A model generated the notes under the pieces. That model did no database searches. It saw only the letters and a list, made by a program, of their open reading frames with translations, and had not been told where the DNA came from. The position numbers and the translations under genes were made by a program. This document shows, piece by piece, positions 6,205-38,123 of a stretch of 64,000 nucleotides of DNA. Position 1 is the first letter of the stretch. Each line of letters starts with the position of its first letter. This DNA is from Planctomycetota bacterium. GTDB taxonomy: Bacteria > Planctomycetota > UBA8108 > SXIK01. The stretch spans positions 4,768,001 to 4,832,000 of the forward strand of contig OZ244999.1 in NCBI GenBank assembly GCA_965223265.1, written 5' to 3'.

Positions 6205-8016
6205 ATGAACCACCGCACTGCCTGGCCGACGCTCGGCCTCATCGCCCTGGTTGTGATTGCACCTAGTGTCGACGCCGCGCCCGTTGAGATCAGAACGGAA
6301 ATGGCACCGCCCTACTGGGCGCTGCTGGAGCGCCAGCTCATCGCTGCCAATGAACGCGCCGGCAAAGAGTTTTTTGAGAAGTACTTCGATGAACGCGGCT
6401 TTCTGCTTTGCATCGAGCGCTGGGGCGGTGACGACGGCCCCGACGATGCCATCGAGACGCTCATCTACTGGCCCATTCTGCACGTCGCCGGGGCCTCCGA
6501 TTCAATCCTTCACATGTACAAAAAGGCCTGGGAGGGTCACCTGCGGCAGTACACGCTCGCCAAGACCGTGAACGTGCCCTTTGCGAGGGACGGCATGTAC
6601 TACAAGGAGTTCCCCGTCATGATGGACTGGCTCCACAACGGCGAGGGACTTGTCGTTTTCGGGCTGCAAGGGCTTTCGGATCCTTATGACATCGACTTTC
6701 AGAAGCGGGCGCGACGTTACGCTGGCTTCTATCTGAATGAAGACCCTCAAGCGCCCAACTACGATCCCAAGCACAAAATCATCCGCAGCCTGTTCAGCGG
6801 CAGTCGCGGGCCGCTTCTGCGCAAGGCCACCGGACTCGATTGGGCGGGCGATCCGATCGAGGTGGTCGGACGCTTCAAGCTCGGCCATGGTGAAGAGAAC
6901 TACGCGCAGATGATCGAACACTTCAAGGACTACAACGATATCGTCGGCGACCATCCGTCCAACTTGCTGGCGACGGCGCTGGCCTTCAACGCCTACACCA
7001 TCAGCCATGAGCAGAAGTACAAGGACTGGGTGCTGGAGTACGTCGGCGCCTGGCGCGATCGCATGATCGAGAACGGTGATCTCATCCCATCCAACATCGG
7101 CCTCGACGGCACCATCGGCGGTGAGACGGACGGCAAGTGGTATGGCGGGGTGTACGGCTGGGGATTCACCGTCGCCGTGCCGCAGACGGGTGAGCTTGAC
7201 GATCGACAGACATTCGATCGAGGCATTCACGGCTTCACGAACGCCGTCCTACTCACTGGCGATCTGAGTTGGCTCGACCCCTGGCGCCGGCAGCTCGACA
7301 AGGTCAACTCGAACAAAAAGGTCGTCGACGGCAAGACGCTCTATCCGTACAAGTACGGCGACGACGGCTGGTACTCCTACAAGCCGGAGCCCTACCGCGC
7401 CGGCGCCGGAGACATGTACTACATGACGATGCGCGAGGACGATCGCCGTCGCGCCGGCAGCAGCCCCTGGTTCGACTACCTGGAAGGCAAGAACCCGGGC
7501 TATCCCGAGCAGATCCTCAAGGCCGATTTCGCCTTCGTCCGCAGCCGCGTCGCCAAAGTACGCGCCGACGAGACGACTCCGGACACGCGCCTGTCGGACG
7601 ATCCACTGCAGAACGCCACGGCGGCGGCGCGCTCGCTCACCGAGCTCATGATGGGCGGCCTCTACCCGGGCCGGACGGGGATGGTGCTGCACTGCCGCCT
7701 GCGCTACTTCGACCCCATCAAACGGCGTGCTGGAGTGCCGCAGGACGTCGCCGCCTTGGTCGACAAGATGACCGCGGACGACGTGGCGGTGACTTTGGTG
7801 AATCTCAACCAGAGCGATGCCCGCACGCTCGTCGTGCAAGCTGGTGCCTACGCGGAGCACGAATTCGTAGAGCTCACCGACGGCTCTGGCAGGAGGCGCA
7901 TCGACGCGCCACACTTCACCGTCAAGCTGGAGCCCGGTGCCGGTGGTCGACTGCAGATCAAAATGCGCCGCTATGTCCATCAACCGACGATCACCTTTCC
8001 TTGGGATCGACACTAG
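6205..8016 (+). CDS. Secreted hypothetical protein, possibly an (alpha/alpha)-barrel enzyme
   Basis: 603 aa with strong GC3 codon bias, a signal peptide (..APSVDA-AP), and acidic/aromatic motifs GGDDGPDDAIE, DWLHNGEG and WYGGVYGWG. Confidence 0.8.
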   Translation: MNHRTAWPTLGLIALVVIAPSVDAAPVEIRTEMAPPYWALLERQLIAANERAGKEFFEKYFDERGFLLCIERWGGDDGPDDAIETLIYWPILHVAGASDSILHMYKKAWEGHLRQYTLAKTVNVPFARDGMYYKEFPVMMDWLHNGEGLVVFGLQGLSDPYDIDFQKRARRYAGFYLNEDPQAPNYDPKHKIIRSLFSGSRGPLLRKATGLDWAGDPIEVVGRFKLGHGEENYAQMIEHFKDYNDIVGDHPSNLLATALAFNAYTISHEQKYKDWVLEYVGAWRDRMIENGDLIPSNIGLDGTIGGETDGKWYGGVYGWGFTVAVPQTGELDDRQTFDRGIHGFTNAVLLTGDLSWLDPWRRQLDKVNSNKKVVDGKTLYPYKYGDDGWYSYKPEPYRAGAGDMYYMTMREDDRRRAGSSPWFDYLEGKNPGYPEQILKADFAFVRSRVAKVRADETTPDTRLSDDPLQNATAAARSLTELMMGGLYPGRTGMVLHCRLRYFDPIKRRAGVPQDVAALVDKMTADDVAVTLVNLNQSDARTLVVQAGAYAEHEFVELTDGSGRRRIDAPHFTVKLEPGAGGRLQIKMRRYVHQPTITFPWDRH

Positions 8017-8293: not shown

Positions 8294-9427
8294 TCACAAA
8301 CCCTCCGCCCGCGCCCACAGCGCCGAGATCGCACGGTTGACCTCGTTCGCCGCATCCATCTGAATCAAGTGTCCCTTGCCGTCGATGATCTGCGTCTCGA
8401 CGTGATCTGGCAGATCGCTGGCGTGTGCAGCCGGGACGATCGCGTCCTGCTCGCCCCAGACCACCAAGGTCGGGACGGCGAGTTGCTCGAGCACTTCGCG
8501 CAGTAAGTTCGTCTGCTTGCCGTCAGCGCTGAACGCACTCGCGATCTTTCGTAGGGCCGCCTCGACGCCATCGAGCCGCTTGTACTTCAGGAGATCCTCA
8601 ACGAGCTGACGCGGGACCTTCGCTGTGTCCGCGAAGAGCTTCTGCACTTGTCGCTTCATCTCCTTGCGGCGACTGGCACTCGCGAACCCATCGATGTAGT
8701 CACTGTCGATCTCGGCGCCGAGGCCCGCACTGGCGAGGAGCGCCAGCGACCGGACGCGGTTGTCGGACCTCCGAGCCAGCTCCATTGCGACCGCTCCGCC
8801 GAGGGAATGGCCGACGAGGTGAACCGGTCCGAGCTCGAGCGCTGCCATGAATCTTTCGACGACGTCTGCGAACTCAGCCACCGTTCCGGTGTCAACGGTC
8901 TTGGAGGAGCCGCCGTGGCCAGGCAAGTCGATCGCATAAACCGCGCGATCACTCGCCAGCACTTCGTGATTGAAGAGCCAGTTGTTGAGGTCGCCACCGA
9001 AACCGTGGATGAGGATCGCGTTCGCGTCTCCGCCGCCGCGCCGCAAGTAGCGGATCGTCTGCCCTGCTACGTCGACCTGCTCGGGAGATGCAGCCGCGTC
9101 GGCGCCTGCCTCGGCTGCCGGCACGAAGTGAGCTTTGAAATCCGTGACGAGCGCGTCAATCTCGTCGTCGCTCACTTCGGCCGCCGCAATGATTCCAAGC
9201 AGACCGCCGACGGGGAGAACGTCACCGGCAGCGGCGATGCAGCGCCTCAGAACTCCACCATCGCTCGCCTCCACCGCACTGGTGATCTTGTCGGTCTCCA
9301 CCTCCATCAGCTGGTCGCCCGGCTGCACGGTCGCGCCGGCTTCGACGAGCCACTCTACCACCTTTCCCTCCTTCATGGAGAGTCCCCACTTCGGCATCGT
9401 GACGCTACGAATGGTGGAATCGGTCAT
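8294..9427 (-). CDS. acoC: Acetoin dehydrogenase E2-like subunit (lipoyl domain plus alpha/beta hydrolase)
   Basis: MPKWGLSMKEG, lipoyl-Lys motif VETDKI, IHGFGGDLNNW and GHSLGG. Last gene of the acoXABC cluster. Confidence 0.9.
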   Translation of the reverse strand: MTDSTIRSVTMPKWGLSMKEGKVVEWLVEAGATVQPGDQLMEVETDKITSAVEASDGGVLRRCIAAAGDVLPVGGLLGIIAAAEVSDDEIDALVTDFKAHFVPAAEAGADAAASPEQVDVAGQTIRYLRRGGGDANAILIHGFGGDLNNWLFNHEVLASDRAVYAIDLPGHGGSSKTVDTGTVAEFADVVERFMAALELGPVHLVGHSLGGAVAMELARRSDNRVRSLALLASAGLGAEIDSDYIDGFASASRRKEMKRQVQKLFADTAKVPRQLVEDLLKYKRLDGVEAALRKIASAFSADGKQTNLLREVLEQLAVPTLVVWGEQDAIVPAAHASDLPDHVETQIIDGKGHLIQMDAANEVNRAISALWARAEGL

Positions 9428-10437
9428 CGCGAATACCCCACCACCTCGCGGGCGGCGGCGGCGATGCGTTCGGCATTCGGGATGTAGAGATCCTCCAGGT
9501 CATCGCTGAAGGGAACTGGCGTGTGCGGTGGAGTGACCTTACGGATCGGCGCCCGGAGATTAGCAAAGGCTTTCTCGGCAACGAGCGACGAGATGTCGGC
9601 TGCCATGTTGCAGCGCGGTGACGCTTCGTCGACGACGACCAGGCGGCCCGTGTTTTCCACGCTCTCAAGCACCGTCTCCTCGTCGAGCGGCGCCGTCGTT
9701 CGTAGGTCGATGACCTCGCAGTCGATGCCTTCCTCGGCGAGCGTGTCAGCCGCTGCAGCAGCCATGTGGACCATGCGCCCGAGCGTGACGATGGTGAGGT
9801 CGCCGCCCTCGCGGACGATCTCCGCCTCACCGAACGGCACGGTGTAGCTCTCCTCGGGCACTTCGCCTTCGAGACTGTAGAGCAGCTTGTGTTCGAAGAA
9901 GATGACCGGATCGTTGTCGCGGATCGCTTCGATGAGGAGTCCTTTGGCGTCGTACGGCGTGGCCGGGATGACACACTTGAGGCCCGGGATGTGGGTGAAC
10001 ACCGGGTAGAGGCATTGGGAGTGTTGAGCGGCAGCACGGAACCCCGCCCCAATCATGGTGCGGATCACGACGGGCGTTTCAGCGCGGCCGCCAAACATGT
10101 AACGGAACTTCGCCGCCTGATTAAAAATCTGGTCGAAGCAGACGCCCATGAAGTCGACAAACATGAGCTCGGCCACGGGCCGAAGGCCGCAGGTCGCCGC
10201 GCCGACCGCCGCACCGATGAATGCCGACTCACTGATCGGCGTGTCCATGACGCGGTCGCCAAACTTGCCGTAGAGGCCTTTGGTCACTCCGAGCACACCG
10301 CCCCAGGCGTCCATCTCCCCTTCAGCGCCGTGGCCACCGGCGACGTCCTCTCCCATGACGACAACCGTGTCGTCATTCGCCATCTCCTGCGCCAGAGCTT
10401 CATTGATCGCTTGTTGAAACGTGATGGTTCGTGCCAT
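9424..10437 (-). CDS. acoB: Acetoin dehydrogenase E1 beta subunit
   Basis: Start MARTITFQQAINEAL at 10437. Motifs DTPISE, DQIFNQAAKFRYMFGG and AAAQHSQ. Confidence 0.92.
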   Translation of the reverse strand: MARTITFQQAINEALAQEMANDDTVVVMGEDVAGGHGAEGEMDAWGGVLGVTKGLYGKFGDRVMDTPISESAFIGAAVGAATCGLRPVAELMFVDFMGVCFDQIFNQAAKFRYMFGGRAETPVVIRTMIGAGFRAAAQHSQCLYPVFTHIPGLKCVIPATPYDAKGLLIEAIRDNDPVIFFEHKLLYSLEGEVPEESYTVPFGEAEIVREGGDLTIVTLGRMVHMAAAAADTLAEEGIDCEVIDLRTTAPLDEETVLESVENTGRLVVVDEASPRCNMAADISSLVAEKAFANLRAPIRKVTPPHTPVPFSDDLEDLYIPNAERIAAAAREVVGYSR

Positions 10438-10451
10438 CGGTTTCCCCCTTC

Positions 10452-11420
10452 TCAGTAGGAGACGTAGACGTCGGTGAGGAGATCGGCCGCGGTCGGCTTC
10501 GGGTCTGCCTTCGCTTTCTCTACGGCAGCATCGATCTGCGTTCTGACTTCGCCGTCGATCTTGTCCAGCTGCGCGGCGTCCACGAGCCCGGCGTCGGCGA
10601 CTTGCCGCGCGAAGTTGGTGATGCAGTCGCGAGTCTCTCGCAGCTTCTCGACTTCCTGCGGACCGCGGTAGGTCTGCGCGTCGCCTTCGAAGTGTCCGTA
10701 GTAGCGATTCACCTTGCACTCGATCAGCGTCGGCCCGCCGCCGTCGCGCGCCCTCGCGATGGCTTCCCCCGCGGTCTCGTAAACAGCGAAGAAGTCATGC
10801 CCGTCGATGGTCACTCCCGGCATGTTGAAGCCGCTGGCGCGATCGGAGACGTCGTCGCAGGCGACCGAATACTTGCAGGACGTCGCCTCAGCGTAACCGT
10901 TGTTCTCAACAACGAAGATGCACGGAAGATTCCATACCGCAGCGAGGTTGAGGCTCTCGAAGGTTGTGCCCTGATTGGAGCCACCGTCGCCGACGAATCC
11001 TACGGCTACGCCGTTGGTGCCCAGCTGTTTCGCCGCCAGCCCGGCGCCGCAGACCAGCGGCGGTCCGCCGCCGACGATCCCGTTCGCTCCCATCATCCCC
11101 TTGTCGAGGTCGGCGATGTGCATCGAGCCGCCCTTTCCGGCGCAGAGACCTGTCGATCGACCATAGATCTCCGCCATCATGAGGTCGACATCACATCCTT
11201 TGGCGATGCAGTGACCGTGGCCACGGTGCGTGCTGGCGATTCTGTCGCGGTCGCCCAAGTGAAGACAGACTCCCGTCGCGATCGCTTCTTCGCCGGCGTA
11301 GAGATGGACGAATCCAGGGATTTCGCCGGTCGCGAATTCGACGTGGAGTCGCTCTTCGAACTCACGGATCGTCCTCATGGTACGGTACGCCGTGAGTAAC
11401 TCATCTCGACTGAGTTCCAT
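10452..11420 (-). CDS. acoA: Acetoin dehydrogenase E1 alpha subunit (TPP-dependent)
   Basis: PGFVHLYAGEEA, STHRGHGH, GKGGSMH, GDGGSNQG and YYGHFEGD. ATG at 11420 lies right after the acoX stop. Confidence 0.92.
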   Translation of the reverse strand: MELSRDELLTAYRTMRTIREFEERLHVEFATGEIPGFVHLYAGEEAIATGVCLHLGDRDRIASTHRGHGHCIAKGCDVDLMMAEIYGRSTGLCAGKGGSMHIADLDKGMMGANGIVGGGPPLVCGAGLAAKQLGTNGVAVGFVGDGGSNQGTTFESLNLAAVWNLPCIFVVENNGYAEATSCKYSVACDDVSDRASGFNMPGVTIDGHDFFAVYETAGEAIARARDGGGPTLIECKVNRYYGHFEGDAQTYRGPQEVEKLRETRDCITNFARQVADAGLVDAAQLDKIDGEVRTQIDAAVEKAKADPKPTAADLLTDVYVSY

Positions 11421-11421
11421 G

Positions 11422-12495
11422 CTAAGCCCTTTCGGTTCGTGCTTTTGGTTGGCGGCCGTCTCGCTGCTCGCTAACTGCCAGGAGACCATCCTTTGCGGCG
11501 ATCATCATCACCTGCGCGACATCGATCGTGAGAGGTCCGTCGCGCGTCACCCGAATCGATACTTGATCGTTCTCGGTGAATTCTATCTCCCTCTCGCCGT
11601 CAAGCGCAATCACACCGCGAGTGGCTTCAACTCGTCGGGGCTCGTCGAGCGCGAGCTGATCGACCCGTCCAACGCCGAACGTCCGGACGAGTCCGGGGGC
11701 GAGCGGCGCGTGAATGATCCGGGTCGCTTCGGCGGGAGAGAGGAGCTGAACGTACACTCCACCCGGGGTGGCACGCGAGAGCGGACGGAGAAGCCCCGCG
11801 ATCGACGAGAGCCCTACCGCGTCCGGCTCGGCGAAGGCGGCGAAGATCTCTCGGATACTCTCCGCGCGCCACAGTGCACGCGACCCGGTCCAGAGTTCGT
11901 CGGAGATCGCAACGTCGACAAGCGCCAGATCACTCGGTGCGCCGTTGACGTCGATGCGAAGCACCTTGCTGCGATGCGTCGCGTCACTCGTCGGCACTCG
12001 TCCAGTCGCAACCAGCCCGGTCGCCAGCCCGGCGACCGTGGCTTCTCGCATTGCCGGAAACACGTTGTTGGTGCCCGTGGAAAGAGCCATGAGTGGGATC
12101 TCCCCGCACGCTTTCGCCACCAGTCGATGGGTGCCGTCGCCACCGAGGACGACGATCGCTTGAACCTCCGCCGCCACCATCGCAGTCGTCGCGCGTACGG
12201 TGTCCATGGGCCCAGACTCGATTTCCATATCAATGAGTTCGACTCGCGGCCATGCAGGATCGTCCGACCGGCGGGAACTGAGCGCCCGGTCGACGCGAGC
12301 GGTGAGGCCGTCGGCGTCCGGCATGATGAGGACTCGCTCGACGCCGGTGATCGCCAGCGCCGAGAGTAGCCGGCCGATCATGCTGCACTTCTCGGCGATC
12401 GGAAAGACCGATGCCCGCGCGACCAATCGACGGATGTCGCGACCGGAAGCCGGGTTCGCCACAATGCCGACGGTGACTGGCGCACCCCGTTTCAT
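11422..12495 (-). CDS. acoX: Acetoin catabolism protein X (NAD kinase-like)
   Basis: ANPASGRDIRRL, LGGDGTHR, STGTNNVFP and ALDGERE. First gene of the aco cluster. Confidence 0.88.
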   Translation of the reverse strand: MKRGAPVTVGIVANPASGRDIRRLVARASVFPIAEKCSMIGRLLSALAITGVERVLIMPDADGLTARVDRALSSRRSDDPAWPRVELIDMEIESGPMDTVRATTAMVAAEVQAIVVLGGDGTHRLVAKACGEIPLMALSTGTNNVFPAMREATVAGLATGLVATGRVPTSDATHRSKVLRIDVNGAPSDLALVDVAISDELWTGSRALWRAESIREIFAAFAEPDAVGLSSIAGLLRPLSRATPGGVYVQLLSPAEATRIIHAPLAPGLVRTFGVGRVDQLALDEPRRVEATRGVIALDGEREIEFTENDQVSIRVTRDGPLTIDVAQVMMIAAKDGLLAVSEQRDGRQPKARTERA

Positions 12496-12785
12496 GGCGC
12501 GACTCGCGCCTCATGAGGCGTCATGACGATGTATCGATGCGGATTCATGGCTTGAAGTGTAAGCTCAAGGTTCCTTTAGGTCGACGCTTCGGCCTCAGTA
12601 TCCTGAGCGCTCGGGGTCCGGGAAGAAAACGCAGAAGAGTCGGTTTTCGCCTGCAATGAAGCCACAGGAATCTACTGTCACGGGCGACTTGTTGACCTCA
12701 TGACGTCAACCTTGATCGCCAGCTCTTCTGTCCGAGATTTCATCTAACAAACTCGCTGCTCGCACGTCATCTTGGCAGTAGTAGG

Positions 12786-14003
12786 ATGACATCGACCATG
12801 CCTCACAGCACGATCTCCGCGACTTTTCACCTCACTCACAACTGTAACTTGCGGTGCGCGTACTGCTACACGGGGGAAAAGTTCGGCGCTGGCATGTCGG
12901 GTGAGACCGCCGGACACGCCGTCGACTTCTCGCTCGCCGAGGCGAGGCGGCAGTCAGCTGACCACCTGGAGGTCGTCTTCTTCGGGGGGGAGCCTCTCCT
13001 GCGGCGCGATCTCCTGTATTGGGTCGTCGACCAAGTTCGCGCACGAGCGGGTGACGATCTCGATGTGTCGTTCAAGATGAGCACGAACGGCATCCTCCTG
13101 AACGAACGCACCGTTAGCGAGTTGGCACGACGCGAGGTCTACGTTTCGATCAGCCTCGACGGCGACCCGGCAGCGCACGACGCACAGCGACCCGACGCGA
13201 ACGGGAACGGCACGGCCGCGCGACTGACCGAGGTCATCCCACGGCTCCTGGCGTGGAACCCGTGCGCCGCTGTGAACTGCGTCGTTACGCCGCATTCGGC
13301 CGCACACCTCGACCGATCTGTTGCCTGGCTGTTCGAGCACGGCTTTCGCTACGTCTCGACTGCTATCGACTACTCCGGCAAGTGGACCCGCCGCTCCTTT
13401 CGCGCGCTCAGAAAAGCATATCGTCGCCTCGGGGACTGGTACATCGACCGGACGCTCGCGGGCCATAAGTTCTACCTCAGCTGTTTCGATGAGCGCATCC
13501 GTACGCGCACCCGCGGCCCACTCGAGCGCTCAGAGCGCTGCTCGATCGGCTTGCGCCAGTTCTCGATCGCCCCCTCAGGCCGCATCTACCCCTGCGTTCA
13601 ATTCGTTCGAGAGGACGACGACGACGAGTTCGTCATCGGCGATGTCGTGAACGGATTCAGCGAGCGTCGCCGACACGCGGTCAACAGGTCTTCCGAAGGC
13701 GAGCGCGCCGAATGCAGTGGCTGCGTCCTCATCGAGCGTTGCTCGAGCTGGTGCGCCTGCGTCAACTGGCAGTCGACCGGGAGCCTCGATCGCGCCAGTC
13801 CAATGGTCTGCGAGCACGACCGCATGCTGATGCCGATCGCCGACCGCGTCGCCAACTCGCTCTGGAAACGACGCAGCTCCCTCTTCATTCACAAACAGTA
13901 CAACCCAGCGTTCCCTGTTCTCGATTTCCTCGAAGACGTCGTCGTCCGAGAGCTCGACACCGCCGAGGTCGACGCCAGCGACAACATCTCGGAAAACTTC
14001 TAG
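12786..14003 (+). CDS. Radical SAM/SPASM domain protein (anSME-like maturase)
   Basis: CNLRCAYC, FFGGEPLL, STNG and ISLDG, plus SPASM cysteines CSIG..G.IYPC and CSGC.....CSSWCAC...CEH. Confidence 0.92.
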   Translation: MTSTMPHSTISATFHLTHNCNLRCAYCYTGEKFGAGMSGETAGHAVDFSLAEARRQSADHLEVVFFGGEPLLRRDLLYWVVDQVRARAGDDLDVSFKMSTNGILLNERTVSELARREVYVSISLDGDPAAHDAQRPDANGNGTAARLTEVIPRLLAWNPCAAVNCVVTPHSAAHLDRSVAWLFEHGFRYVSTAIDYSGKWTRRSFRALRKAYRRLGDWYIDRTLAGHKFYLSCFDERIRTRTRGPLERSERCSIGLRQFSIAPSGRIYPCVQFVREDDDDEFVIGDVVNGFSERRRHAVNRSSEGERAECSGCVLIERCSSWCACVNWQSTGSLDRASPMVCEHDRMLMPIADRVANSLWKRRSSLFIHKQYNPAFPVLDFLEDVVVRELDTAEVDASDNISENF

Positions 14004-14014
14004 GAGAACCCGCG

Positions 14015-14953
14015 ATGAGAGATCGCCCTTTCGAAGTCAAACCCGTCCGGAGCTACGGGGTGGCCAAGTACCCCTCGGACGAGGATCCGGATCCGTGCTC
14101 GTACCCGGCCCCCGTGCCTTTCCCCTTCAGTCGTGCTTTCATCTCCGCACTCACCGGGTTCGGTATCGCCGCGGGCGGCGCTGTGCTGGCCGCTGAGGAT
14201 TCCAAGGACGCCACCGCGTCAAAGAGCCCTGAATCGCCGAACCCGTTCGCTGTAAAATACAGCGGCCTCCCGCATCGCACCTCGCCCTACGGCACTGGGC
14301 AGCCGTGCTATGTCCAGGAAGACCTCGCTCGCAAGGTCATCGAACGGGTCTTCCGTGAAGAAGGCATTCGGTTGGTGAAGAATCAGCGTCTGCGCGACGA
14401 GGAAGTCGAATTCGTAACCGACGGGTACGACTCCCTGACCGGCATCGGGTACGTCTTCGCGGACGCCTCTAACCTCGACGACGACGCCTACATTTCGTGG
14501 ATGGCGAGGTCCCCCACGGAACAGAGCGCGAAGGCCCTCCGCACGGCGCTTCGATTAGAAAAGCACCGGGCGGAGAAACATCTCGCCAAGGAGATCGACG
14601 CGGCGCTGGCCCTTGAGGACGACGCCGCGTTCCTCACAGCCTGCAAGCGGGTCCGTCACCTCCTCAAGCGCAGCAAGCTATCCCTGTCGGAGGCGAAGAA
14701 ACTGGAAGAGCGCGCCGAGGAAGGCGAACAGTTCGTCGCGGTCATCAGTCGTTTCGACAGACGCTACGCGACGTCGTGCCTCCCCAGCGCCCTTCAGCGT
14801 CAAAAGCTGAAGGCGATCGTTGAGATTTCGGACGAGAAAGAGCGTGCCGCGGCGCTGAACAAGTTTCGTGAGGCGGCGGCGAGAGACTCGCTCGAGCGAC
14901 TGGAGCGTCACGTCAAGGAGTACATCCGTTGGGCGCGCTCGCAGGGGATGTGA
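14015..14953 (+). CDS. Radical SAM-associated exported hypothetical protein (putative modification substrate)
   Basis: The AGGAGA SD overlaps the rSAM stop, with ATG at 14015. N-terminal KPVRSYGVAKYP is followed by hydrophobic FISALTGFGIAAGGAVLA-AED. Confidence 0.75.
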   Translation: MRDRPFEVKPVRSYGVAKYPSDEDPDPCSYPAPVPFPFSRAFISALTGFGIAAGGAVLAAEDSKDATASKSPESPNPFAVKYSGLPHRTSPYGTGQPCYVQEDLARKVIERVFREEGIRLVKNQRLRDEEVEFVTDGYDSLTGIGYVFADASNLDDDAYISWMARSPTEQSAKALRTALRLEKHRAEKHLAKEIDAALALEDDAAFLTACKRVRHLLKRSKLSLSEAKKLEERAEEGEQFVAVISRFDRRYATSCLPSALQRQKLKAIVEISDEKERAAALNKFREAAARDSLERLERHVKEYIRWARSQGM

Positions 14954-15187
14954 GCGCAGCCGATCGGCCTGGTGACACTCCGGGGTAGAAATCCGCGCCT
15001 CGCTCAACCAAGAGCTTGACCAAATCGATTGACCGCCGAGAGTTCTACAATCGACTCTTCGGGACGACTGATTCGCCGTGATCCGCGCGGATACGGCACG
15101 TACTCCTCGGCATGCTGCATGAGCTCTGCACTCCGGATTGCGTTTGGTACCAACGTTCTTACCGTTACGCAGCAGCACGAGCGAGCC

Positions 15188-16354
15188 TCAGGAGAACACC
15201 CAACCGCGGTCGCGCCTTAGTTTTTCGACTTCTTCATTCGAGAGAAAGAGGACGTAGCGGCTGTGGAACGCGCCTTCCTCTCCCGGGCTTCCGCGAGTGT
15301 CGACCAACACAAACTGGCTGTCGCTTCTTGCTCCAAAGCTCTCGTTGATCGCCGGCAGACATTCGAGCACGACGTCGTCGTCCTGCACCAACTGCAGTGG
15401 CTCGCAGCGCTTATCCGCCACGACGAACGAGAACACCCCTCCCGTGCCTTCCGGTTCTTCACGCAATTCTCTTGGATCAAAGGCGCCTCTCGAAACCTTC
15501 GCCAGCGTCCTCAAAAACAGCTCGGCACGCTCTTGAGGCGAGCCCTCCTGCCACTCCTCGTCATCGCCGACACAGAGGCGATACTCCCACCAAACGCGAT
15601 GCGGACTCAAGATCGACAACAATGTCAAGTCGACCATCTCTGAAGCTTGCGGCAGAAGATCGAGCACCTCCATGCTGAAGACATCCTCCAGCTCGTCGTA
15701 GTCATCGACAACGACCAGAACACCCTGGAAGGCCTCAAAGAGATCCTCGTCGTACTCAAGAGTCATTGCCGTCAGCTTCGCGTCGGTGACACCCACCGCC
15801 GCTTCGAGCAAGCCGAACGCTCGAAAGTACTGCACAAATTCGGCAACGAGGGTGTGTAACCGTTCACGTTGACCCTGCCGCTCCTTCGCCAACTGCGCGG
15901 GCGACGGACGGTTGACGTAGTTCCACTTCTGATAGAAACGGTCGTGCACGCACATCGTCAGTAGATTCGGGTCAATACGTTTCAACTTTCGATCAAAAGT
16001 GAGCGCGGCGAAGTGCGCCATCAACTCGCTGACCGCCGCTCCGGCGAAACGCTCTGTCCTTCCCGCCTCCTCCCACTCCACCTCGGCAACACAATTGCTC
16101 ACGACGATTTCTTTGCCTTTGAGAACTCCCCCGGAGATCTCGCACCATACGGCGCACCTCGCGCTCTCAAAGATCACCGCGAACAACTCGTGATCCTTGT
16201 GCAAGAACCCCTGTCCTTGGATTCCCAAAGACGGTAATGAAAAGCACTCGGTCGTTGCCTCGAAGTCGATCTCTCTCAGGTGCCGCGTCACAGTCGCAAC
16301 CGCCCCGGAATCTGACCACGAAAGGCTGCCTGCAGGGTCGACTGGATTCTTCAT
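15188..16354 (-). CDS. Hypothetical acidic protein
   Basis: 388-aa ORF with globular, Glu-rich composition. No family motif recognised. Confidence 0.65.
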   Translation of the reverse strand: MKNPVDPAGSLSWSDSGAVATVTRHLREIDFEATTECFSLPSLGIQGQGFLHKDHELFAVIFESARCAVWCEISGGVLKGKEIVVSNCVAEVEWEEAGRTERFAGAAVSELMAHFAALTFDRKLKRIDPNLLTMCVHDRFYQKWNYVNRPSPAQLAKERQGQRERLHTLVAEFVQYFRAFGLLEAAVGVTDAKLTAMTLEYDEDLFEAFQGVLVVVDDYDELEDVFSMEVLDLLPQASEMVDLTLLSILSPHRVWWEYRLCVGDDEEWQEGSPQERAELFLRTLAKVSRGAFDPRELREEPEGTGGVFSFVVADKRCEPLQLVQDDDVVLECLPAINESFGARSDSQFVLVDTRGSPGEEGAFHSRYVLFLSNEEVEKLRRDRGWVFS

Positions 16355-17960: not shown

Positions 17961-18371
17961 ATGCACATAGACGTGGCGAAGTTGTCTGCAGTGATTGCTG
18001 GTTTCGCGGTCGCAGTGACGTCGCTCGTAGTTGCTGCTCTCGTCACGCGAATCATCTATCGATTTTGCCTCAACCGGGAACATCGGGGCGCTTACGGTCC
18101 GGAGTATCTCGTCGCGTGCACGATTTTCGTGCTGCCGGGTGTGACCACGATGCTGCGCCCCGGGAGTCTTCTTTATTCCATCTTTTACTTTGTCGATGCT
18201 GTTCCAGGCATTCAGTCCGGTGTTGACGGCTTCACCGGTACGCTCGCTGTGATCATGGGCCACATGGTGTGGGGATCTCTCACCGGCTGGATCATCGTCG
18301 CATGCATCGAGCTGGTACGGCGACAGCGTCGGCAAATGGCGCCAAGATCATCGACACCCACCGACACGTAG
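17961..18371 (+). CDS. Hypothetical multi-pass membrane protein
   Basis: Three to four hydrophobic segments including GHMVWGSLTG. Start is uncertain. Confidence 0.55.
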   Translation: MHIDVAKLSAVIAGFAVAVTSLVVAALVTRIIYRFCLNREHRGAYGPEYLVACTIFVLPGVTTMLRPGSLLYSIFYFVDAVPGIQSGVDGFTGTLAVIMGHMVWGSLTGWIIVACIELVRRQRRQMAPRSSTPTDT

Positions 18372-18394
18372 AACGATCAAGTTTTTTCACCCTT

Positions 18395-20829
18395 ATGCGC
18401 ATCTTCTCCATCTTCGTACTCCTCCAGACAGCCTCGGCCTGCAGCGTGACCCCGGATCTCAAGAGCGAAACCGCGCCCTGGTCGATCGATCGATCACACC
18501 GGCTACTGATCCGCGTTGACCCGGTGGAGATCACGCGCGATGCCGACGAGCTGGTCGCCCGAGCAGAGATCGACTTTGATCGCGTCTTGCGGTCTGCCCG
18601 CTGCGATCTGTCGACTATCACTATTCAGGAATATGACGCGGCAACGGGTCAGGTGATCTCTTTCATGGGCAGCGGCGAACGCCCGGTTCGTGTCTACGAC
18701 CTGAGCATTCCCTGGAAGTTTCCGGAGCGTCAGGGCTATGCGCATGGAAGCGATGGCACGGGATTGCCGGCGACTTTCGTTGAGGGCGGCGGTCGATTCG
18801 TTCCGGCAGTTGGCGAGGGGCGCAAGGCGTCTGTTGCGTGGTCCCACCTCCAGCGAGCGCAGCAGTCGTCGCACTATGCGATCTACTTCGATCTCTTACC
18901 GGCCGGCGCCGCACCTTCGCTCTCGGTTCCCGGATTCGTCGGTGATGGATCGAACCGCTGTGCAGCAGATGCCGACAGCTTCTTCCCGCTCTACCACAGC
19001 CGCGTCGACACCGCTGATCTCGACGGCGACGGACGATTCGACCTGGTCGTCGGCAACCTGAACGGCACTCTCCTCTGGTATCCCAACGTCGGTCGCCCTG
19101 GGGCACCACGCTTCGAGCTGGCGCGATGGATCGTCGCGGACGCAGGCGACCCGCTCGACGTTGGCTACAGCTCCGCCCCGCGCGCGGCCGACTGGGACGG
19201 CGACGGCGATCTCGATTGATCGTCGGGGCGGAGAAGGAGTCGCTCGTGTTCTTTCGCAATGAGGGAACCGTCACGAACCCGAAGTTTTACCTGCAAGGGC
19301 TCCTCAGCGCTGACGGCAACCCGATCCGCGTCCCCAAGTCGCCCTGTGAAGAGGATCCAGACGGCAGGGTTTTTCCGTACGACTACTATCCCATACCGGA
19401 GATCGTCGATTGGGACGGCGACGGCGACCTCGACCTGCTCGCTGGAGGTTATATCACTGGACGCATCTGGTTTTATGAGAACGTCGCTGGCGCAGCGCGC
19501 GATGAGCCTGAGCTCACGTTTCGCGGCGCCCTGCAGGCGGACGGTCGTGACCTCGATGTGACGTGGATGGCTTCCCCGTGCGCGGCGGATTTCGACAGCG
19601 ACGGTGACCTCGACCTGATCAGCGGCGCCATGCAGATCACCGCGGGACTGGGTGATCTATCCGACCCTGAGAAGTTTCTCTGGTACTACGAGAACGTCGG
19701 AAGCCGAAGCGCGCCACAACTGACGCTGCGGCCCTTTCCTGCGAAAGGAAAGTTCCGCCACGGTTCACTGGGAACTCCACGGGCGATCGACTTCAATCGC
19801 GATGGTTTGCTCGACCTCGTCGTCAGCGCGTCGCGCGATCTGCTCCTCTTAGCCAATGTCGGCTCGTCAAACAATCCTGTCTTCGATGCGTCGACTGAAC
19901 CACTGCGGGCACCGTGGGGAAGTGCGCCGCTCAGATTCCAGCAACTGCTCGACTACAATGGTGACGGCTGGCCCGATCTCTTTGGCGGCGCCGAGGTGCA
20001 GGACAACATGCCTTTCTTCGCCGGGGCGGCAGTAACGCTCTGTGATGGGCAGAATGGGAACCGTTATACAGGCAAGAACGTGATCCCGCTTCTCGAATCA
20101 GGGCAGCGCATCCATCATCCGACACCGCGCGGCGATGCGTGGGACTATCGTGCACTTGCCGATCTCGACGGCGATGACCTGCTGGATGTTCTCTCGGGCG
20201 TTCATGAAGGCCACATCTGGTTTCATCGAAATCGGGGCACGCGTGAGCAAGGGAGAGTCGATGCAGCAGGCGTCCGTCTGAAACTTATCGATGGCGAGCT
20301 GCTCCGCGTCGGCCTCCCCCCAACGCCAGAAGATGAAAATGCCTTCGATGAACTGCAAGGTGCGCGAACAACCGTGGCGAGCGCGGACTTCAACCGCGAC
20401 GGACGACCGGATCTACTGGTCTGCGATACGTATGGCGTCGTGCGAATCTTCCTGCAGGCGCCCGGAGACTTGCTGCGTTTCGAACCCGCTGTCGTGATCG
20501 CACGCGAAGGCAAAGTTCGGCTGACCGCGCAGCCAATCGATTGGAACGGCGATGGCTGGGATGACGTGATCGCCATGTACGCCAGCGAAGAGAGCTACTT
20601 GATCTTGAACCGAGCCGTGCCAGGGAAAGCGGCGTTCGATGCCCCGAAACCGTTGAAACTACCGAGATATCCCATGTCCTGGCCGCTTCTGCACGTCGCC
20701 GACTGGAACAACGACGGCGACGAGGACCTGCTACTTCACTACGGCACCATGCTCCGCTACATCGAGCGCTCGTTTGTCGACCACGGCTATGTGCCGGCGA
20801 CGATCATTGCGCACGAAGCGCAGCGGTAG
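18395..20829 (+). CDS. FG-GAP/VCBS repeat lipoprotein, frameshifted at about 19215
   Basis: Lipobox-like TASAC and many D(W/F)DGDGDLDL repeats. ORFs 18269..19219 and 19126..20829 join into DGDGDLD-LIVGA if one T is restored in GATTGATC. Confidence 0.8.
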
Positions 20830-25675: not shown

Positions 25676-28600
25676 GTGAGCAAAAAAGTGCGTCCGGGAC
25701 GCGAGACGATCATTCTGCGGGTGATCGAGGCTGAGCCTGCCGACCGCGAACGCCTCTTGGCCGAGCTCTGTGGAGACGACTCAGTGCTCCGCGGAGACAT
25801 TGCACGCCTCTTAACATTTTGCGACTCTGCCGCAGAGATCTCAAAGCGCCTCGAAAACCTCGCGGAATCGGTGGAATCGACAAACCTGCGCAATGCGCCA
25901 TGCATCGACGGCCTCACGATCCTCGGAGAGCTCGGCCGCGGCGGCATGGGCACAGTTTATCTAGCGAAGCAGAGCGAACCCCTCGACCGACTCGTTGCTG
26001 TCAAAGTTTTGCACGCCACGCGGAATACTGCGGAGCACACGGCCCGCTTTCAAGGGGAGGCGCAAGCCCTCGCGCGCATGCACCACGAAGGCATTGCTGC
26101 GATCTTCGATGCCGGAATAACAGAACTGAACGAGCCGTACTTCATCATGGAGTATGTCGACGGTCGCCGACTGACGGACTACTGCGACGAACAAACGCTC
26201 GACACAGTCCAACGGCTCCGACTCTTCTGCCAAATCTGCGACGCAGTACAGCACGCGCACGAAAGTGGAATCGTTCATCGTGACCTCAAACCGTCCAATG
26301 TCCTTGTGAAGTCCTCGGGGGACGACTCCAAATCAAGGTCATCGACTTCGGAATCGCCAAAGCGCTGCGTGGGCGCCTCCACGACGCCACGAGTACTAGG
26401 GGTGCAGGTCCGCTAGGTACGATAGAATACATGAGCCCGGAGCAATTGTTCGACGACGGAGTTATCTCCGAGCGTTCCGATGTGTACGCTCTAGGCATCA
26501 TCCTCTACGAACTGCTCGCTCGACAAACTCCCTACAGCGAGAAAGGTGATGAAGATCTCATCACGCGCCTGATCGCCGGTCCACGTCCGCTTAGTGAAGT
26601 GTCACCAGTTCATTCTTTGGCGCTCGAAGCCATCGTCGATCGATCGTTGGCTCGCTCTCCGAAGGATCGCTATCCAAGCGTCGCTGCACTTTCTGACGAA
26701 GTGCGGCGTTACCTGGACGGCGAAACAGTCCGCGCTGTCGGTCACGCCCGGCGGCATGCGTTGCGTCGATGGGTTCGGCATCGCCCTCCATCTTCGGTAC
26801 TCTCGAAAGTCGGAGGGCTCGGGGCCATCGTGGTCCTCATGGGCTTCCTCGCATGGCATGGACTGCGGATCCTCGAGGACAAGGGCCATGAGAGCGACCA
26901 GCCGCAGACGGAGCGAACTCGCTTCGAAGACTCGACGCGGGTCGTGGCGCGGGCGCGTCAAGCTCTGGAAGCCGGAGCGATCGAGCAGACACACTCGCTC
27001 GTTAGCCAGTACTTGAATCAAATGGGAGGCAAGGACGAGCACGAACGCTCGAGTTTTGACATCGAGTACCTGCGAAGAAAAAGCGAGCTCTCCTCCGAGC
27101 CCCTTGAGCTGGTCCAAGGCGGGCTCGACCGCATGGTGTTTTTGCGCGACGGACGAAGCATTGCTGTCCTCGGATCGCGCTCCGAACGGGAGCAAGGCAT
27201 CGTTACCCGATGGTCGATCGACCGAATAGAGTCTCCGATCCAACGGTGGCGCATAGAGCTCGAGTTTCCGGTGAGCGACATGGTCCTGGAGCCGGGCGGT
27301 GAATTCTTGACCCTCCAGGCCCAGGGTGAAGCGCTCTTAGCGACAGTCGACGTCGAAGATGGCGCAGTGCGCCGTTACGGTGGTCTGATCACCTCGGGAC
27401 ACCTGGCGTACTCGCCCATCGGCCATGTTTTGGTTGCCGCCGCCACCACGGTTGTCCTCCACACGTCGCCGCCCACCCGTTACTTTCAGGTCGGCAACTT
27501 CAAACCCAAAGAGACTTACACCGGCCTCGGGTTCTCAGACGATGGTCGGTGGCTCGTGGTCGGTGGATTCGACAATCTTCGACTCATTTCTATTCCGGAG
27601 AGCATCCCCTATGGGACGTCAAGCAGCCGCCAACCCGTGACCCAAGTTCTGAAGTTCCCGGTAGCCCGCCCCATCGACAATCTCTGCATGGTTAACGACG
27701 TCGTCGTCGCCGCGCACCGCGAAGCCGGCCTCGTGAAGTACGACGTGCGGCAACTGAGAGAAATCCGTCGGTCGGCTCCTCTCTCAACCGACGTTGAGGT
27801 CCTCGCGGCTTCGCCGGATGGCCGCTGGTTAGCAACAGGTTCACGTGAGGGTGATCTGACAATCTGGGATCAGGACACCCTCGTCGCGCTATGGAGCGTC
27901 CGAGCCCACGGCCGACGTATAGACGATCTCCAATTCTCTTCCGATAGTAGGTTGCTCGCTTCGGTCGGTGATCGAGGCGCTCTACGTTTCTGGTCAACGG
28001 AACGTTGGTCTCGCCTAACGTCGCACGCAATCACAAAGCAGCGACTCTGGGACGTGGCCTTTCGCGATGACGGACGTTTGGTCACGGAGTCGGAACATCC
28101 CCGCTTCTCGCTCTGGGATCTCGATCGAGAACGGCCACCGGGAGGGTATCACTCAGAGTCCAGCGTCGAGGTGGAGCCTTGGTCGGCGGGGGGAATCGAA
28201 CACGAAGTGTGCGCGTTAGCACCCGGAGGGCGTGAAGTTGCCGTTTCGACCTCCAACTACACGGTTCAGCTCGTCGCGACGAACGATCGAGTGCAGGAAA
28301 TCGTCGAGCTGGGCAAGTTTTCGGCGCCCGTCTACGGGATGGGATTCTCACGGGACGGCTCTCTCTTCGCCGCGTGCTCACTTAGACACGTTCGCCCACT
28401 CGTCGAGAGTCAGCTCATGGTCTGGCGGCGCGGCAAACACCGAGAGAATCGGCCACTGGACTCTGTGCGAGCCAGTCCCCACAACCTCATCCTCGACGTC
28501 AAGACGGACGTCACAAGCCGTCGACTCGCGGTCTTCCCACGACGCGGCTTGATCGCGATCGGCGGTCGGGAAGCCACACCGATCGAGGTACGCGCCATCG

Positions 28601-29079
28601 CCGATGGAGCGCGGATCGGCAGATTTCAAGCTCAGAGCTTCGTCGTGGGCATCGTACCGACTCCCGACGAGCGGTTTCTCGCAACTCTCGGAGAGGACGG
28701 CACCGTTGAGGTCTGGCAGATTCCCGACAGATCGGCCGAGCTCGCTCCTCCGACCCGAGAGCTCACCGTTCGCTGCCACCGGGGACGAATCAACGCACTG
28801 AAATTCTTCCCGGATGGCCAACGATTCGTCACGGGCCCCGCCGAAGGTTCGGTGAAACTTTGGCGCTGGTTCGAGGAAGCTGGAGAGTTGAGCGTGGTCG
28901 AGCTTTTGGAGCTCAACCCGCCTCCCGGACAAGTGATGGGACTCGACGTAAGAGCCGACGGTCAAGCTGTAGTTGCTGCAGGCGGTTCGCCGGATGGAGC
29001 TGCCGGTTGGGTGAAAATGTGGTGGGGCGCCACGACGATCCGGCACAACAACCCTGTTTCGCCCTCCCCTGCCAGATAA
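25676..29079 (+). CDS. Ser/Thr protein kinase with TM and WD40 repeats, frameshifted at about 26320-26332
   Basis: The first ORF has LGRGGMGTVY, VAVK and HRDLKPSN. The next frame continues IKVIDFGIAK...GTIEYMSPEQ and SDVYALG, then WD40 repeats. Confidence 0.85.
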
Positions 29080-32287: not shown

Positions 32288-34183
32288 TCAAAACTCACTC
32301 TCCTCGGCGCGCAAGAACTGGCGCAGCACCGGCAGCGCCTCCTCGATGGACCAATTCTCAGACCAGCGCGTGACGCCATGGCGACGACACAGCTCAAGGA
32401 GCCGCCGCAGGTAAGGCCGCGCTCGTTCTGCGTCTTCGACGCTGAGAACGGAATCGATTTCAAGTCCGCCGCGATTCCAGCGGGCGCGATGGCCGCCCGA
32501 GAGCCGCATCGGCAGGTCCCCCACCGCGGCGCGATAGGCCCAGATCGACGCGCGCTCGACGCGCGCACGGATGTCATCGTCTTCGGCGAGCTCGAACGCG
32601 CGCCGACACGCCTCGAGGCCCCGAGCCGCCGTCTCCCGGTCGATCCCATAGTCTGCCGGATGAGCAAAGCAGCTCTTCTCGAAACCTCCTGCGAGCGCGT
32701 TTTCGTGCATCAAAGCGATGAACTGGCGGATCGCTGGTGCAGCCTTGCCGTAATAGAGTCGCACGAACTCATCGAGGAGCTCGTCGCCGCGAAGATTCGG
32801 GTTCCAGAGTAAACGCGATGCCATGTAGTTACGGACGCCAGAAAACTCCGCCCCGACTGCGTTCCCGGCCCCTTGCATGAAGACGCCGCGGGCGCTATTG
32901 GCGACGAAAAAGCGAATGTTCGGCTCGATCGTGTGTAGGTTCGGGCACGGCAACAAATAGTTGTGAAAGTTCGTCATGTACGACCAGATGCAGATGTCGT
33001 CGCTGATGCGCCCCCAGCCGCGCAGGTCATCGCGAAACGCTGCGTTCAGCTTCGAGTCTGGATGGTCGATCGGCTGCAGCTGACTGCACTCGATCGACGC
33101 GAGCTGGATCTGGACGTTGTCAGCCGGTCTCAGGTCGAGCGGTGGCTTCCGCGTGTACCAATAAGCCAAGGTGCCGACCTTGATGCCCGGATGGTCGCGT
33201 TTCACTGCCGCCGCGACCGCATTGACGAAAGTCAGCAGTGACCCCATCGGCGAGCCCTCTCGCGCGTCGATCGCAGCACACGGCGCGCAGCGGCAGTATT
33301 CGTCGTTGTCGTTCTGGCTTACCGAAATGTTACTCCACTCGGGCTCGCGTTCGATCTGCTGCAGAACTGCCGCCGTAACGATTTCAAGGACCTTCGGGTT
33401 CGTCAGACACGGCTCGTTGTCGCGAGAGTCGTTGTGCACCTGCGCTAGGCGCTTGCCATCCACGAGGCTGTAATACTCGGGATGCTCCTTGCCATAGCGA
33501 CGCGATGGAATCTGGCTGGCGAACGAATGGTTGATCAATCGGCGCGACGTGACACCGCCGAAGCGGGCGTGACGCGGCACGGTATTGATGCGCAGGCGCG
33601 CCGCGAACGCCTCGTTGCCGTTGACCTCGCCGTAGTAGCTGTAACGAAAGGCGAGAGGTGGACGATAGATGCGATCGACCGGATCGATCTTCCGCCACTC
33701 ACCCAGCGCCGGCACGTGCGTGCAGTCGGGCGTGAGAAAGCGCACGCCAAGATAGTCTTCGAGAAAGGTGTACACTCCGTAGAGCGTGCCGCGCGGCCGT
33801 CCGCCGGCGATGGCGATCGAATCATCGCGGACGACGATGCGGAGATCCTCCGGCCCCAGCCCGACGGTCGAGAATCCGGCGCGGCTCTGCCGCATCAGCG
33901 CGCTGTCGCCAATATAAACGTGTCGATCACTTCGCTGCGCCGCGGTCACGATCCGCAGTCGCGCCCCCGAAGCCTCGGCAAAAAAGTCACGAAACTCCTC
34001 GGCGGCGTAGCGCTCACTGGGGATCGCGTCGGCAGCGACGTAGATCGTCCAGTCGCGGACGTCCGCCAAATTGACACTACGTGCCGGATCAGCCGCTAAC
34101 ACGTCCACCGCAACCACGAAACTCGCCACTGCAACCATCGTTGCACGCGCAGACGTTCGTAAGTTCCTTTTCTTAGTGCGCAC
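32288..34183 (-). CDS. DUF4838 domain secreted protein
   Basis: GGRPRGTLYGVYTFLEDYLGVRF, HPEYYSL, PCLTNP, SVSQND...CRCAPC and LLWNP. GAGGA SD before GTG 34183. Confidence 0.85.
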   Translation of the reverse strand: MRTKKRNLRTSARATMVAVASFVVAVDVLAADPARSVNLADVRDWTIYVAADAIPSERYAAEEFRDFFAEASGARLRIVTAAQRSDRHVYIGDSALMRQSRAGFSTVGLGPEDLRIVVRDDSIAIAGGRPRGTLYGVYTFLEDYLGVRFLTPDCTHVPALGEWRKIDPVDRIYRPPLAFRYSYYGEVNGNEAFAARLRINTVPRHARFGGVTSRRLINHSFASQIPSRRYGKEHPEYYSLVDGKRLAQVHNDSRDNEPCLTNPKVLEIVTAAVLQQIEREPEWSNISVSQNDNDEYCRCAPCAAIDAREGSPMGSLLTFVNAVAAAVKRDHPGIKVGTLAYWYTRKPPLDLRPADNVQIQLASIECSQLQPIDHPDSKLNAAFRDDLRGWGRISDDICIWSYMTNFHNYLLPCPNLHTIEPNIRFFVANSARGVFMQGAGNAVGAEFSGVRNYMASRLLWNPNLRGDELLDEFVRLYYGKAAPAIRQFIALMHENALAGGFEKSCFAHPADYGIDRETAARGLEACRRAFELAEDDDIRARVERASIWAYRAAVGDLPMRLSGGHRARWNRGGLEIDSVLSVEDAERARPYLRRLLELCRRHGVTRWSENWSIEEALPVLRQFLRAEESEF

Positions 34184-38026: not shown

Positions 38027-38123
38027 CGCTACCTCCGGTTCCCAAACGCCTGAAAAACACACCCAGGCGACCCAACTCATCCCGGGCAAAGAGCCTTGAA
38101 TTATCTTCCCGACTCGTCCGAAG

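Follow-up and report, generated by a model that had tools for sequence, protein, structure and literature searches.

The anaerobic sulfatase-maturating enzymes (anSMEs) oxidise one residue of an exported protein before its export. Action on proteins is already known as a kind of chemistry among radical S-adenosylmethionine (rSAM) enzymes with a SPASM domain: QhpD and CrpC are described as making thioether cross-links on proteins (PMC13692751). The spliceases yield X-CO-CO-NH-Gly keto-amides at XYG sites (PMC11414181, PMC9811515), such keto-amides inhibit Ser and Cys proteases (PMC11414181, PMC11626197, PMC9811515), and spliceotide proteins are named in a reference title (PMC11002830). Here we analyse a two-gene unit from a Planctomycetota bacterium (UBA8108, SXIK01; assembly GCA_965223265.1), in which an rSAM/SPASM enzyme is followed by the gene of a presumably exported protein, its partner, with a leader-like N-terminus (Table 1). 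The unit lies in a stretch of 64,000 nucleotides (contig OZ244999.1, positions 4,768,001 to 4,832,000 of the forward strand), called the window below. The enzyme-partner pair is a real and widespread variant of rSAM protein maturation, and it is undescribed: enzyme, leader and partner are absent from the titles and beginnings of abstracts of the literature searched, a search outside which most subscription papers lie. We tentatively read the pair as a protein-maturation system in which a leader directs oxidation at Tyr92-Gly93 of the partner before export, giving a reactive product.

The ranthipeptide maturases CteB and PapB (PDB 5wgg, which we take to be CteB; models TIGR03974 and NF047865) are closest in sequence to the enzyme of this unit and share with it the rSAM plus SPASM architecture and an adjacent leader-bearing substrate. 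Unlike them, the enzyme studied here lacks a recognition element (RRE) of the kind used for RiPPs (peptides synthesised by ribosomes and modified after translation), misses all the cut-offs and has eight instead of seven SPASM cysteines, and its putative substrate is a folded, exported protein of 312 residues without conserved Cys, whose leader is predicted to sit on a C-terminal extension of the enzyme. QhpD with QhpC and CrpC with CrpA share a SPASM enzyme and RiPP-like leader logic on a protein, but theirs carry the modification at Cys and QhpD has recourse to an RRE (PMC13692751), whereas here Cys donor and RRE are both lacking and the leader precedes an export helix. An earlier note on this DNA had seen in the pair RiPP logic applied to a full-size secreted protein; the leader and the linkage are in line with this, but the logic in itself is not new given the QhpD and CrpC precedents. 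The spliceases (PlpX and the binary RhaX type; PMC11414181, PMC9811515, PMC11002830) have an X-Y-G-like site, and two-gene systems without RRE exist among them; moreover, one genome has the scaffold of the partner with xYG next to an enzyme of TIGR04133-like type. In contrast to them, our enzyme is outside the TIGR04103/TIGR04133 clade, and its site is Phe-Gly more often than Tyr-Gly. The anSMEs (TIGR03942; PDB 4k37, the second-closest PDB sequence to the enzyme) are likewise SPASM enzymes without RRE, but the score of our enzyme on their model is 77.6 bits against a cut-off of 349.45, no sulfatase is found in the window, the leader is a dedicated one, and the site is aromatic-Gly and not the Cys/Ser sulfatase motif.

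The association of the two genes was studied through a scan of the species genomes of GTDB, where 377 stretches encode a relative of the enzyme, and the best 80 of them were fetched as loci. A profile search found an adjacent partner on the same strand in 78 of these 80 loci, in such a way that the coupling proposed from the single locus holds across Planctomycetota, Bacteroidota (many Saprospiraceae), Verrucomicrobiota, Bacillota, Armatimonadota, Myxococcales, Zixibacteria, Cloacimonadota and others. Of the two loci without partner, one has an enzyme that begins at a contig end and the other (L030) is a true orphan, and 18 of the 80 loci carry two or three partners per enzyme. Among 401 genomes of Saprospiraceae, the partner was found in 23 and the enzyme in 16, the two being adjacent in 15; the sixteenth enzyme scored much lower and had no C-terminal motif. 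Close homologues of the enzyme, with 44-70% identity, are many: of 8,000 candidates that were scored, 538 had E ≤ 1e-40. In the own genome, no paralogue of either gene was detected by tblastn, patterns and a group C profile, and relatives of the enzyme at E ≤ 1e-30 were found in 0 of 40 related genomes, so its distribution is patchy.

Several of the loci are of interest by themselves. The partner in L064 (5591-5989), counted among the 78, is a leader-bearing lipoprotein of only 132 residues, without folded domain, with L-A-G and V-P-G segments and encoded upstream of the enzyme. Four tandem leader-bearing partners with loops x-G-(D/R/E/G)-(V/L) lie near a contig end in L131 (3560-6763; G536:C596). 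Enzyme and leader-bearing partner share one open frame in L005 (6001-8034; also L108; P0185, 682 residues), a natural fusion or a lost stop that apparently occurs in one genome only. Two loci are decayed: in L134 (3907-5098; G811:C32) the enzyme extends over two frames and runs into the C-terminal half of the partner, and in L091 (G350:C22) the enzyme is also spread over two frames and the leader of the partner lies in another frame too. The sixteenth enzyme of Saprospiraceae (L129:5477-7176; G324) is PapB-like, without the C-terminal leader-binding motif, and adjoins a protein of 139 residues with an N-terminal R-Y-G-M-P-P segment, the two possibly being another undescribed pair.

The conservation of the partner was analysed on 160 proteins, the query and 159 homologues (one source list being the best 150 of 195), which were divided by the presence of Tyr/Phe-Pro at positions 19-20 into 127 leader-bearing and 33 leaderless proteins. 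Among the leader-bearing ones, a loop ahead of the folded domain is nearly invariant at G93 (126 of 127), T94 (124) and G95 (126), with G-L-P followed after four or five residues by an aromatic residue at position 92: 76 proteins have Phe there and 50 have Tyr, the remaining one having Cys. Of the leaderless proteins, by contrast, 18 have Cys at position 92 and 8 have Tyr or Phe, while 4 show a gap there and 3 some other residue; T94 and G95 are relaxed in the 18 Cys forms (kept in 13 and 8). The switch is specific to this column, where 19 of the 22 non-aromatic residues are Cys; seven further aromatic columns, taken as a control, gave 3 of 60. Half of the eight leaderless aromatic cases have fewer than 45 residues ahead of the site, and in one (P0142) the leader sits in a frameshifted neighbouring frame. 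A tree that excluded leader and loop placed 147 proteins; after dropping 11 (5 Cys, 4 aromatic, 2 other), the 136 with at least 45 residues upstream were 118 with leader and aromatic residue, 1 with leader and Cys, 13 leaderless with Cys, 3 leaderless with aromatic residue and 1 other. The minimum number of changes on this tree was at least 10 for Cys at 92 and 12 for the leader. No enzyme was found in the DNA fetched around seven leaderless Cys forms (L082-L086, L106 and L136), some on short contigs. Eight leaderless loci of Saprospiraceae likewise show no enzyme in the DNA fetched; five of them have Cys, L106 and L136 being additional Cys forms, and three have lost the loop. The N-terminus of P0056 resembles a remnant of the C-terminus of the enzyme, and a metagenome scan for Cys forms returned four loci, one of them a Cys form.

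The earlier note had pointed to this loop as the target of the enzyme, and conservation together with the replacement by Cys at 92 make it the best candidate; the segments quoted there from the 312-residue partner (KPVRSYGVAKYP, YPAPVPFPF, GGAVLA-AED and SGLPHRTSPYGTGQPCY) are all found in its translation. The chemistries suggested for it fared worse. A cross-link to the Cys of the loop fails as the chemistry of the family, since Cys98 is present in only 2 of the 160 proteins; Tyr at position 99 is found in just 25% of the leader-bearing homologues, and no position of the mature region has Cys in more than 11 of 127. Tyramine splicing in its strict form is unlikely, as Tyr is in the minority at the X-G site (50 of 127) and the enzyme scores 36.8 bits against a cut-off of 425 on TIGR04133. 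In the Cys forms, no second Cys that could form a disulfide is conserved.

The segment ahead of the export helix, taken in the earlier note for a leader recognised by the maturase, is also conserved, with V8 in 95%, P10 in 87%, P27 in 95% and P37 in 95% of the 127 leader-bearing homologues, and a consensus over all groups that reads (K/R/E)-V-(K/R)-P-V-(R/K)-(R/K)-Y-x-x-(P/A)-(K/R)-Y-P. Leader profiles run on 137,111 six-frame segments of the own genome found this gene only (55.6 bits, the next best being 13.3), so the other leader-bearing proteins that had been envisaged there are absent by this measure. This hit and the conservation of leader and loop across the homologues put both motifs above chance. 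A predicted complex of the enzyme with residues 1-110 of the partner scored 0.82, against 0.00 for the best of three controls. Of 157 solved pairs 116 came up to the mark, as did 2 of 215 mismatched ones, counts that are only rough for our own alignments. The runs had at least 49% of contacts in common, with a partner pLDDT (predicted local distance difference test) of at least 55. In the model, leader residues 3-45 contact the enzyme around 238-244, 309-316 and 337-390, and Tyr19 packs on residues 353, 356, 357 and 360, in a strongly conserved C-terminal stretch. The model supports a leader-binding site on the SPASM domain and C-terminal extension that would replace the RRE. Following the leader, a hydrophobic 12-mer is present in 121 of 127 homologues, a Cys in the cleavage region in 60 and a twin Arg in 8, and on these grounds the partner would be exported by Sec, often as a lipoprotein; twin-arginine export was discarded because RR appears in merely those 8.

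Regarding the enzyme, the version in the protein database has 401 residues, consistent with the second ATG as start. It matches Radical_SAM in Pfam with 52.5 bits and also Fer4_12, the SPASM match (17.7 bits) being under the cut-off. Apart from these two generic domains, no curated family cut-off was reached, the NCBIfam models considered being the best 25. The top model is that of PapB (NF047865, 201.7 bits against 340), and further scores were 130.7 against 453 for the QhpD-type TIGR03906, 127.7 against 425 for the SCIFF model TIGR03974 and, for cyclophane synthases, 91.4 against 445 (YhhB), 67.3 against 370 (FxsB) and 67.2 against 425 (AmcB); TIGR04103 was outside these 25, the lowest listed score being 60.5 bits. 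The nearest PDB sequence is 5wgg (E 4e-52). The cluster motif already lies at residues 20-27, which leaves no space for an N-terminal RRE. Among 89 enzymes taken from the fetched loci, seven of the SPASM cysteines are kept in all, including Cys325, two residues after Cys323, and Cys270 in 88; other conserved residues are R318, D353 (88 of 89), F367 and Y372 (both 89 of 89). QhpD and CteB have seven SPASM cysteines (PMC10352776), and the eight found here suggest that no iron is left open for a substrate thiol.

No Pfam or NCBIfam family was found for the partner. Its AlphaFold model (mean pLDDT 89.5) had as top match in VIA-align the catalytic domain of I-Bth0305I (3r3p; Z 7.4, root-mean-square deviation 3.6, 96 residues aligned), with NGO0050 (3hrl, 6.4), Bax1 (6.3) and Vsr (1cw0, 6.0) next. 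A group C partner of 178 residues gave the same top match (Z 8.7, deviation 3.6, 94 aligned) with VRR-NUC, Bax1, Vsr and AbaSI lower, and all but one of its top 14 rows are nuclease-like or RAP-type chains by title. The group C profile finds the partner of the window at E 7e-8, and DUF559 clusters are among the structure neighbours in the Atlas. Foldseek gave no match for either model at E ≤ 0.001. A Z near 8 is middling, yet several members of one fold family recur, and a Vsr/DUF559-like fold is the assignment that the models favour. In contrast to the nucleases of this fold (Vsr, DUF559, I-Bth0305I), the partner would be exported or lipid-anchored, has no Pfam match and appears not to conserve the acidic positions in this group: D136 is kept in 68 of 127 and position 147 is Val in 86 of 127 and Glu in groups B and C, both positions being set by motif and not by superposition. 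Because these positions seem poorly kept, we read the domain as an inactive scaffold. The name 'Metalloprotease' of an ESM Atlas cluster was left unused, with all feature hits under 0.9. The fold also occurs in short homologues (about 125-140 residues) without signal or loop (L110, L115, L116, L118 and P0318), and in a family of leaderless lipoproteins (L158-L172) with no rSAM gene in the DNA fetched.

All the enzyme-linked partners inspected by eye keep a Gly about 8-12 residues ahead of the domain's first helix, and the surroundings of this Gly change between groups. The motif of group B (Bacillota, Armatimonadota) is G-x-G-R-G-S-(F/Y)-G-C, in which the Cys is conserved and stands two positions past the aromatic residue; group C has mostly T-G-P-P-P, where V, I, M, A, S or C may replace T; others have (Y/F)-G-N-S-Y or x-G-(D/R/E)-V. 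The variety of the residue before Gly in the distant groups (T, V, M, A, S, C, I) suggests a chemistry of the backbone. An alternative register would align T94-G95 with the T-G of group C. The aromatic-X-X trait of the triceptides is present in the group of the window, as F/Y-G-T, and mostly missing in group C. In one further genome (G458:C152, L130:6222-9830), an rSAM gene is followed by two leaderless lipoproteins of the Vsr-like fold with a doubled xYG at the loop. The enzyme reaches 357 of the 425 bits of TIGR04133, with TIGR04103 as second hit, the xYG genes are interleaved with divergent genes of Pro-rich lipoproteins, and the same genome has a leader-type system on another contig (C128). 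Among the loci returned from 251 and 201 genomes of two other phyla there were no further xYG cases.

These data can be joined in a mechanism of four steps. The enzyme would very probably recognise the leader through its SPASM domain and the family-specific C-terminal extension, without RRE. A 5'-deoxyadenosyl radical would then probably act in the cytoplasm on the loop ahead of the folded domain, at Tyr92-Gly93, as indicated by the conservation and the Cys replacement. The partner would be exported afterwards. Should the helix be a signal that is cleaved, the leader would be cut off along with it by signal peptidase, in such a way that neither a dedicated protease nor a transporter would be needed. 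The product must be one that a lone Cys can replace and that is made without a substrate Cys, by an enzyme with eight SPASM cysteines. In the fourth and weakest step, the most likely chemistry would be a two-electron oxidation at Cα/Cβ of residue 92, from which a dehydro residue or an alpha-keto-acyl-Gly amide would arise, by hydrolysis or a splice-like rearrangement. A keto-amide reacts with the thiols of a target, and so does a thiol. The product may be a thiol-reactive electrophile that the inactive Vsr-like scaffold displays outside the cell and that covalently captures or inhibits a target, for instance a Cys or Ser protease. Lineages that lose leader and enzyme would retain the reactive centre through the change of residue 92 to Cys; in PrdA, a Cys can be turned into a pyruvoyl group (PMC11229817). 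A bolder and rather doubtful extension of this is that an unnamed, widespread rSAM family installs a reactive carbonyl, independent of the side chain (a keto-amide or dehydro precursor), at the X-Gly of exported proteins by means of a pre-signal leader, and that the same loop on the Vsr-like scaffold has been armed with a covalent warhead along three independent routes: through this enzyme, through one of splicease-like type at xYG and, after loss of the enzyme, through a Cys alone.

A number of observations weigh against these proposals. Residues 84-98, the loop, are outside the confident contacts of the complex model, and the closest characterised enzymes make C-S bonds. The tree yields six supported independent pairs, with a mean of 4.6 in the expected direction and 0.0 in the opposite one, and the median p of 0.0625 falls short of significance; Cys is, moreover, one base change from the codons of Tyr and Phe alike. 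The leader-bearing P0044 has Cys at 92, and L040 has a leaderless Cys paralogue beside the enzyme, in addition to a leader-bearing Phe-Gly paralogue. Distant leaderless lipoproteins of the fold have no loop Cys in 8 of 9 cases, and the loop is gone in 3 of the 8 leaderless Saprospiraceae loci, so a reactive centre is unnecessary for the persistence of the fold. A free choice of the residue before Gly assumes one chemistry over groups that are around 40% identical, and in this group the residue is strictly aromatic. The xYG case comes from one genome alone, and TIGR04103 and TIGR04133 are presumably families of spliceases. Finally, the change of a Cys of PrdA into a pyruvoyl group requires helper proteins (PMC11229817), so a self-processing of the Cys forms is without direct precedent.

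Other explanations differ in the product from the oxidation that we favour. With the same pair, leader and site, the enzyme may form a C-S bond at the benzylic Cβ of Tyr/Phe92 from sulfide or a small thiol (in the X-G-C group, from the nearby Cys), which would give a β-substituted cysteine analogue with the sulfur placed exactly as the Cys sulfur of the leaderless forms. The nearest characterised relatives, the PapB, SCIFF/CteB (5wgg) and QhpD models, are thioether formers, and the Cys of group B stands two residues past the aromatic one. However, there is no conserved Cys donor in the group of the window, and the eighth SPASM Cys may occupy the open site at which enzymes of the CteB type bind the thiol. 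We know of no SPASM precedent for the insertion of free sulfur, and it would be hard to see why an enzyme is kept for a product that a codon supplies. All in all, we consider this route unlikely. The three-residue cyclophane, a C-C link of the ring of Tyr/Phe92 to Thr94 with a loss of 2 Da that would rigidify the loop, would account for the presence of F/Y-G-T in nearly all leader-bearing proteins (T94 124 of 127, G95 126 of 127), for its relaxation in the Cys forms and for the (Y/F)-G-N of another group. Such a ring is not replaceable by a lone Cys, most loops of group C have no aromatic residue, and the cyclophane-synthase models score low, so a cyclophane seems rather improbable to us.

The enzyme may also turn residue 92 (or 94), ahead of Gly, into its D form, with Cys325 as the hydrogen donor. 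Such an epimerisation, silent in mass and with a structural rather than reactive role, would be independent of the side chain, matching the variety of X in distant groups, and the additional invariant Cys325 recalls the cysteines that act as H-donors in rSAM epimerases. This change, however, would leave the specific and repeated switch to Cys unexplained, as Gly would be expected instead, and the related L129 enzyme has the same Cys without this partner; we regard it as very unlikely. It is also quite improbable that the loop is unmodified, the partner being a membrane anchor, a regulator, an accessory protein or a substrate at another site, and the Cys forms a result of drift after decay. The model does leave the loop outside the active site, several loci are visibly decayed by frameshifts (L091, L134), and Cys is mutationally near Tyr and Phe. 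However, Leu, His, Ser and Asp, which also arise by a single step, are nearly missing at 92 but common at other aromatic columns; the loop lies past the export helix and would be parted from a cytoplasmic enzyme after export; and the two or three partner paralogues per enzyme in 18 of 80 loci are as expected of substrates. The oxidation at Tyr92-Gly93 remains, tentatively, the reading that we prefer.

Table 1. Features of the enzyme-partner unit, in window positions.
Feature	Position	Strand	Basis
rSAM/SPASM enzyme, 405 residues (probable start 12798, 401 residues), no N-terminal RRE	12786..14003	+	Pfam, NCBIfam and PDB matches
CxxxCxxC SAM-cluster motif, Cys20, 24, 27	12843..12866	+	Kept in 88/89 locus enzymes
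SPASM domain, Cys252, 270, 310, 313, 319, 323, 325, 342	13539..13811	+	Conservation in locus enzymes
C-terminal helical extension, residues 337-390, predicted leader binder in place of RRE	13794..13955	+	Complex-model interface
Overlap of enzyme stop and partner Shine-Dalgarno sequence	14001..14014	+	AGGAG with 8-nucleotide spacer; from sequence
Partner, 312 residues: leader, hydrophobic export helix, target loop, Vsr/DUF559-like domain	14015..14953	+	
Leader, residues 1-38	14015..14128	+	V8-x-P10-V-x-x-Y14-x-x-(P/A)17-x-Y19-P20, then DP.P and (F/Y)P(F)
Hydrophobic helix, residues 40-60, putative Sec signal or membrane anchor	14132..14194	+	Helix 40-54 in model
Conserved loop G84-L-P-x4-S/x-x-Y92-G93-T94-G95-x-P97	14264..14305	+	Conservation
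Putative modification site Tyr92-Gly93	14288-14293	+	Conservation, Cys at 92 in leaderless homologues
Vsr/DUF559-like PD-(D/E)XK-type fold with helical insert	14315..14947	+	Structure alignment (VIA-align)

The surroundings agree with the earlier description of an isolated unit in which the Shine-Dalgarno sequence of the second gene overlaps the stop of the first: AGGAG (14002-14006) overlaps the TAG (14001-14003), with the ATG of the partner 8 nucleotides downstream. Upstream there is a divergent operon (8294-12495, minus strand) with a NAD-kinase-like gene, E1 alpha, E1 beta and a fusion of a lipoyl domain with an alpha-beta-hydrolase, which we take to be acetoin-dehydrogenase-like, and downstream a convergent hypothetical gene. 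As that description also had it, no sulfatase, PqqD or transporter is nearby, none of these families being found by Pfam in 41 of the 42 predicted open reading frames of the window; the sole PqqD match of the genome, which is one contig of 9.18 Mb, is around 1 Mb from the locus. A promoter and terminator scan gave no signal beyond chance. A foreign origin was considered from composition and rejected, as the G+C content at third codon positions (0.80 and 0.78) falls near the top of the range found in the window and does not mark either gene as foreign. A public contig is identical over 12500-15200, possibly from the same source sample. Elsewhere in the window, an FG-GAP repeat gene (18269-20829, plus strand) and a Ser/Thr kinase-WD40 gene after a sigma factor of the extracytoplasmic function type (25676-29076, plus) each extend over two frames that overlap or adjoin, by either frameshifts or assembly errors. 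In an RNA repair operon (40581-45099), rtcR diverges from rtcA and rtcB, and the gene of a SNF2 helicase comes next. Long open reading frames without Pfam family at the thresholds used are 6205-8016 (plus), 15188-16354 (minus), 34071-35702 (plus), 36110-38089 (minus) and 54912-56279 (plus).

The enzyme family is common, with its 377 stretches in GTDB, reaches no curated family cut-off and comes with an obvious substrate in a two-gene unit, in such a way that a single co-expression could test the proposal. The recurrent switch from an aromatic residue to Cys marks the residue of interest and restricts the possible product. If the proposal is true, recognition of the leader would be independent of an RRE and its removal would be left to the ordinary export machinery, and a keto-amide or dehydro residue at Phe-Gly, or at any X-Gly, would be a new radical SAM chemistry and a portable tag for putting an electrophile into secreted proteins.

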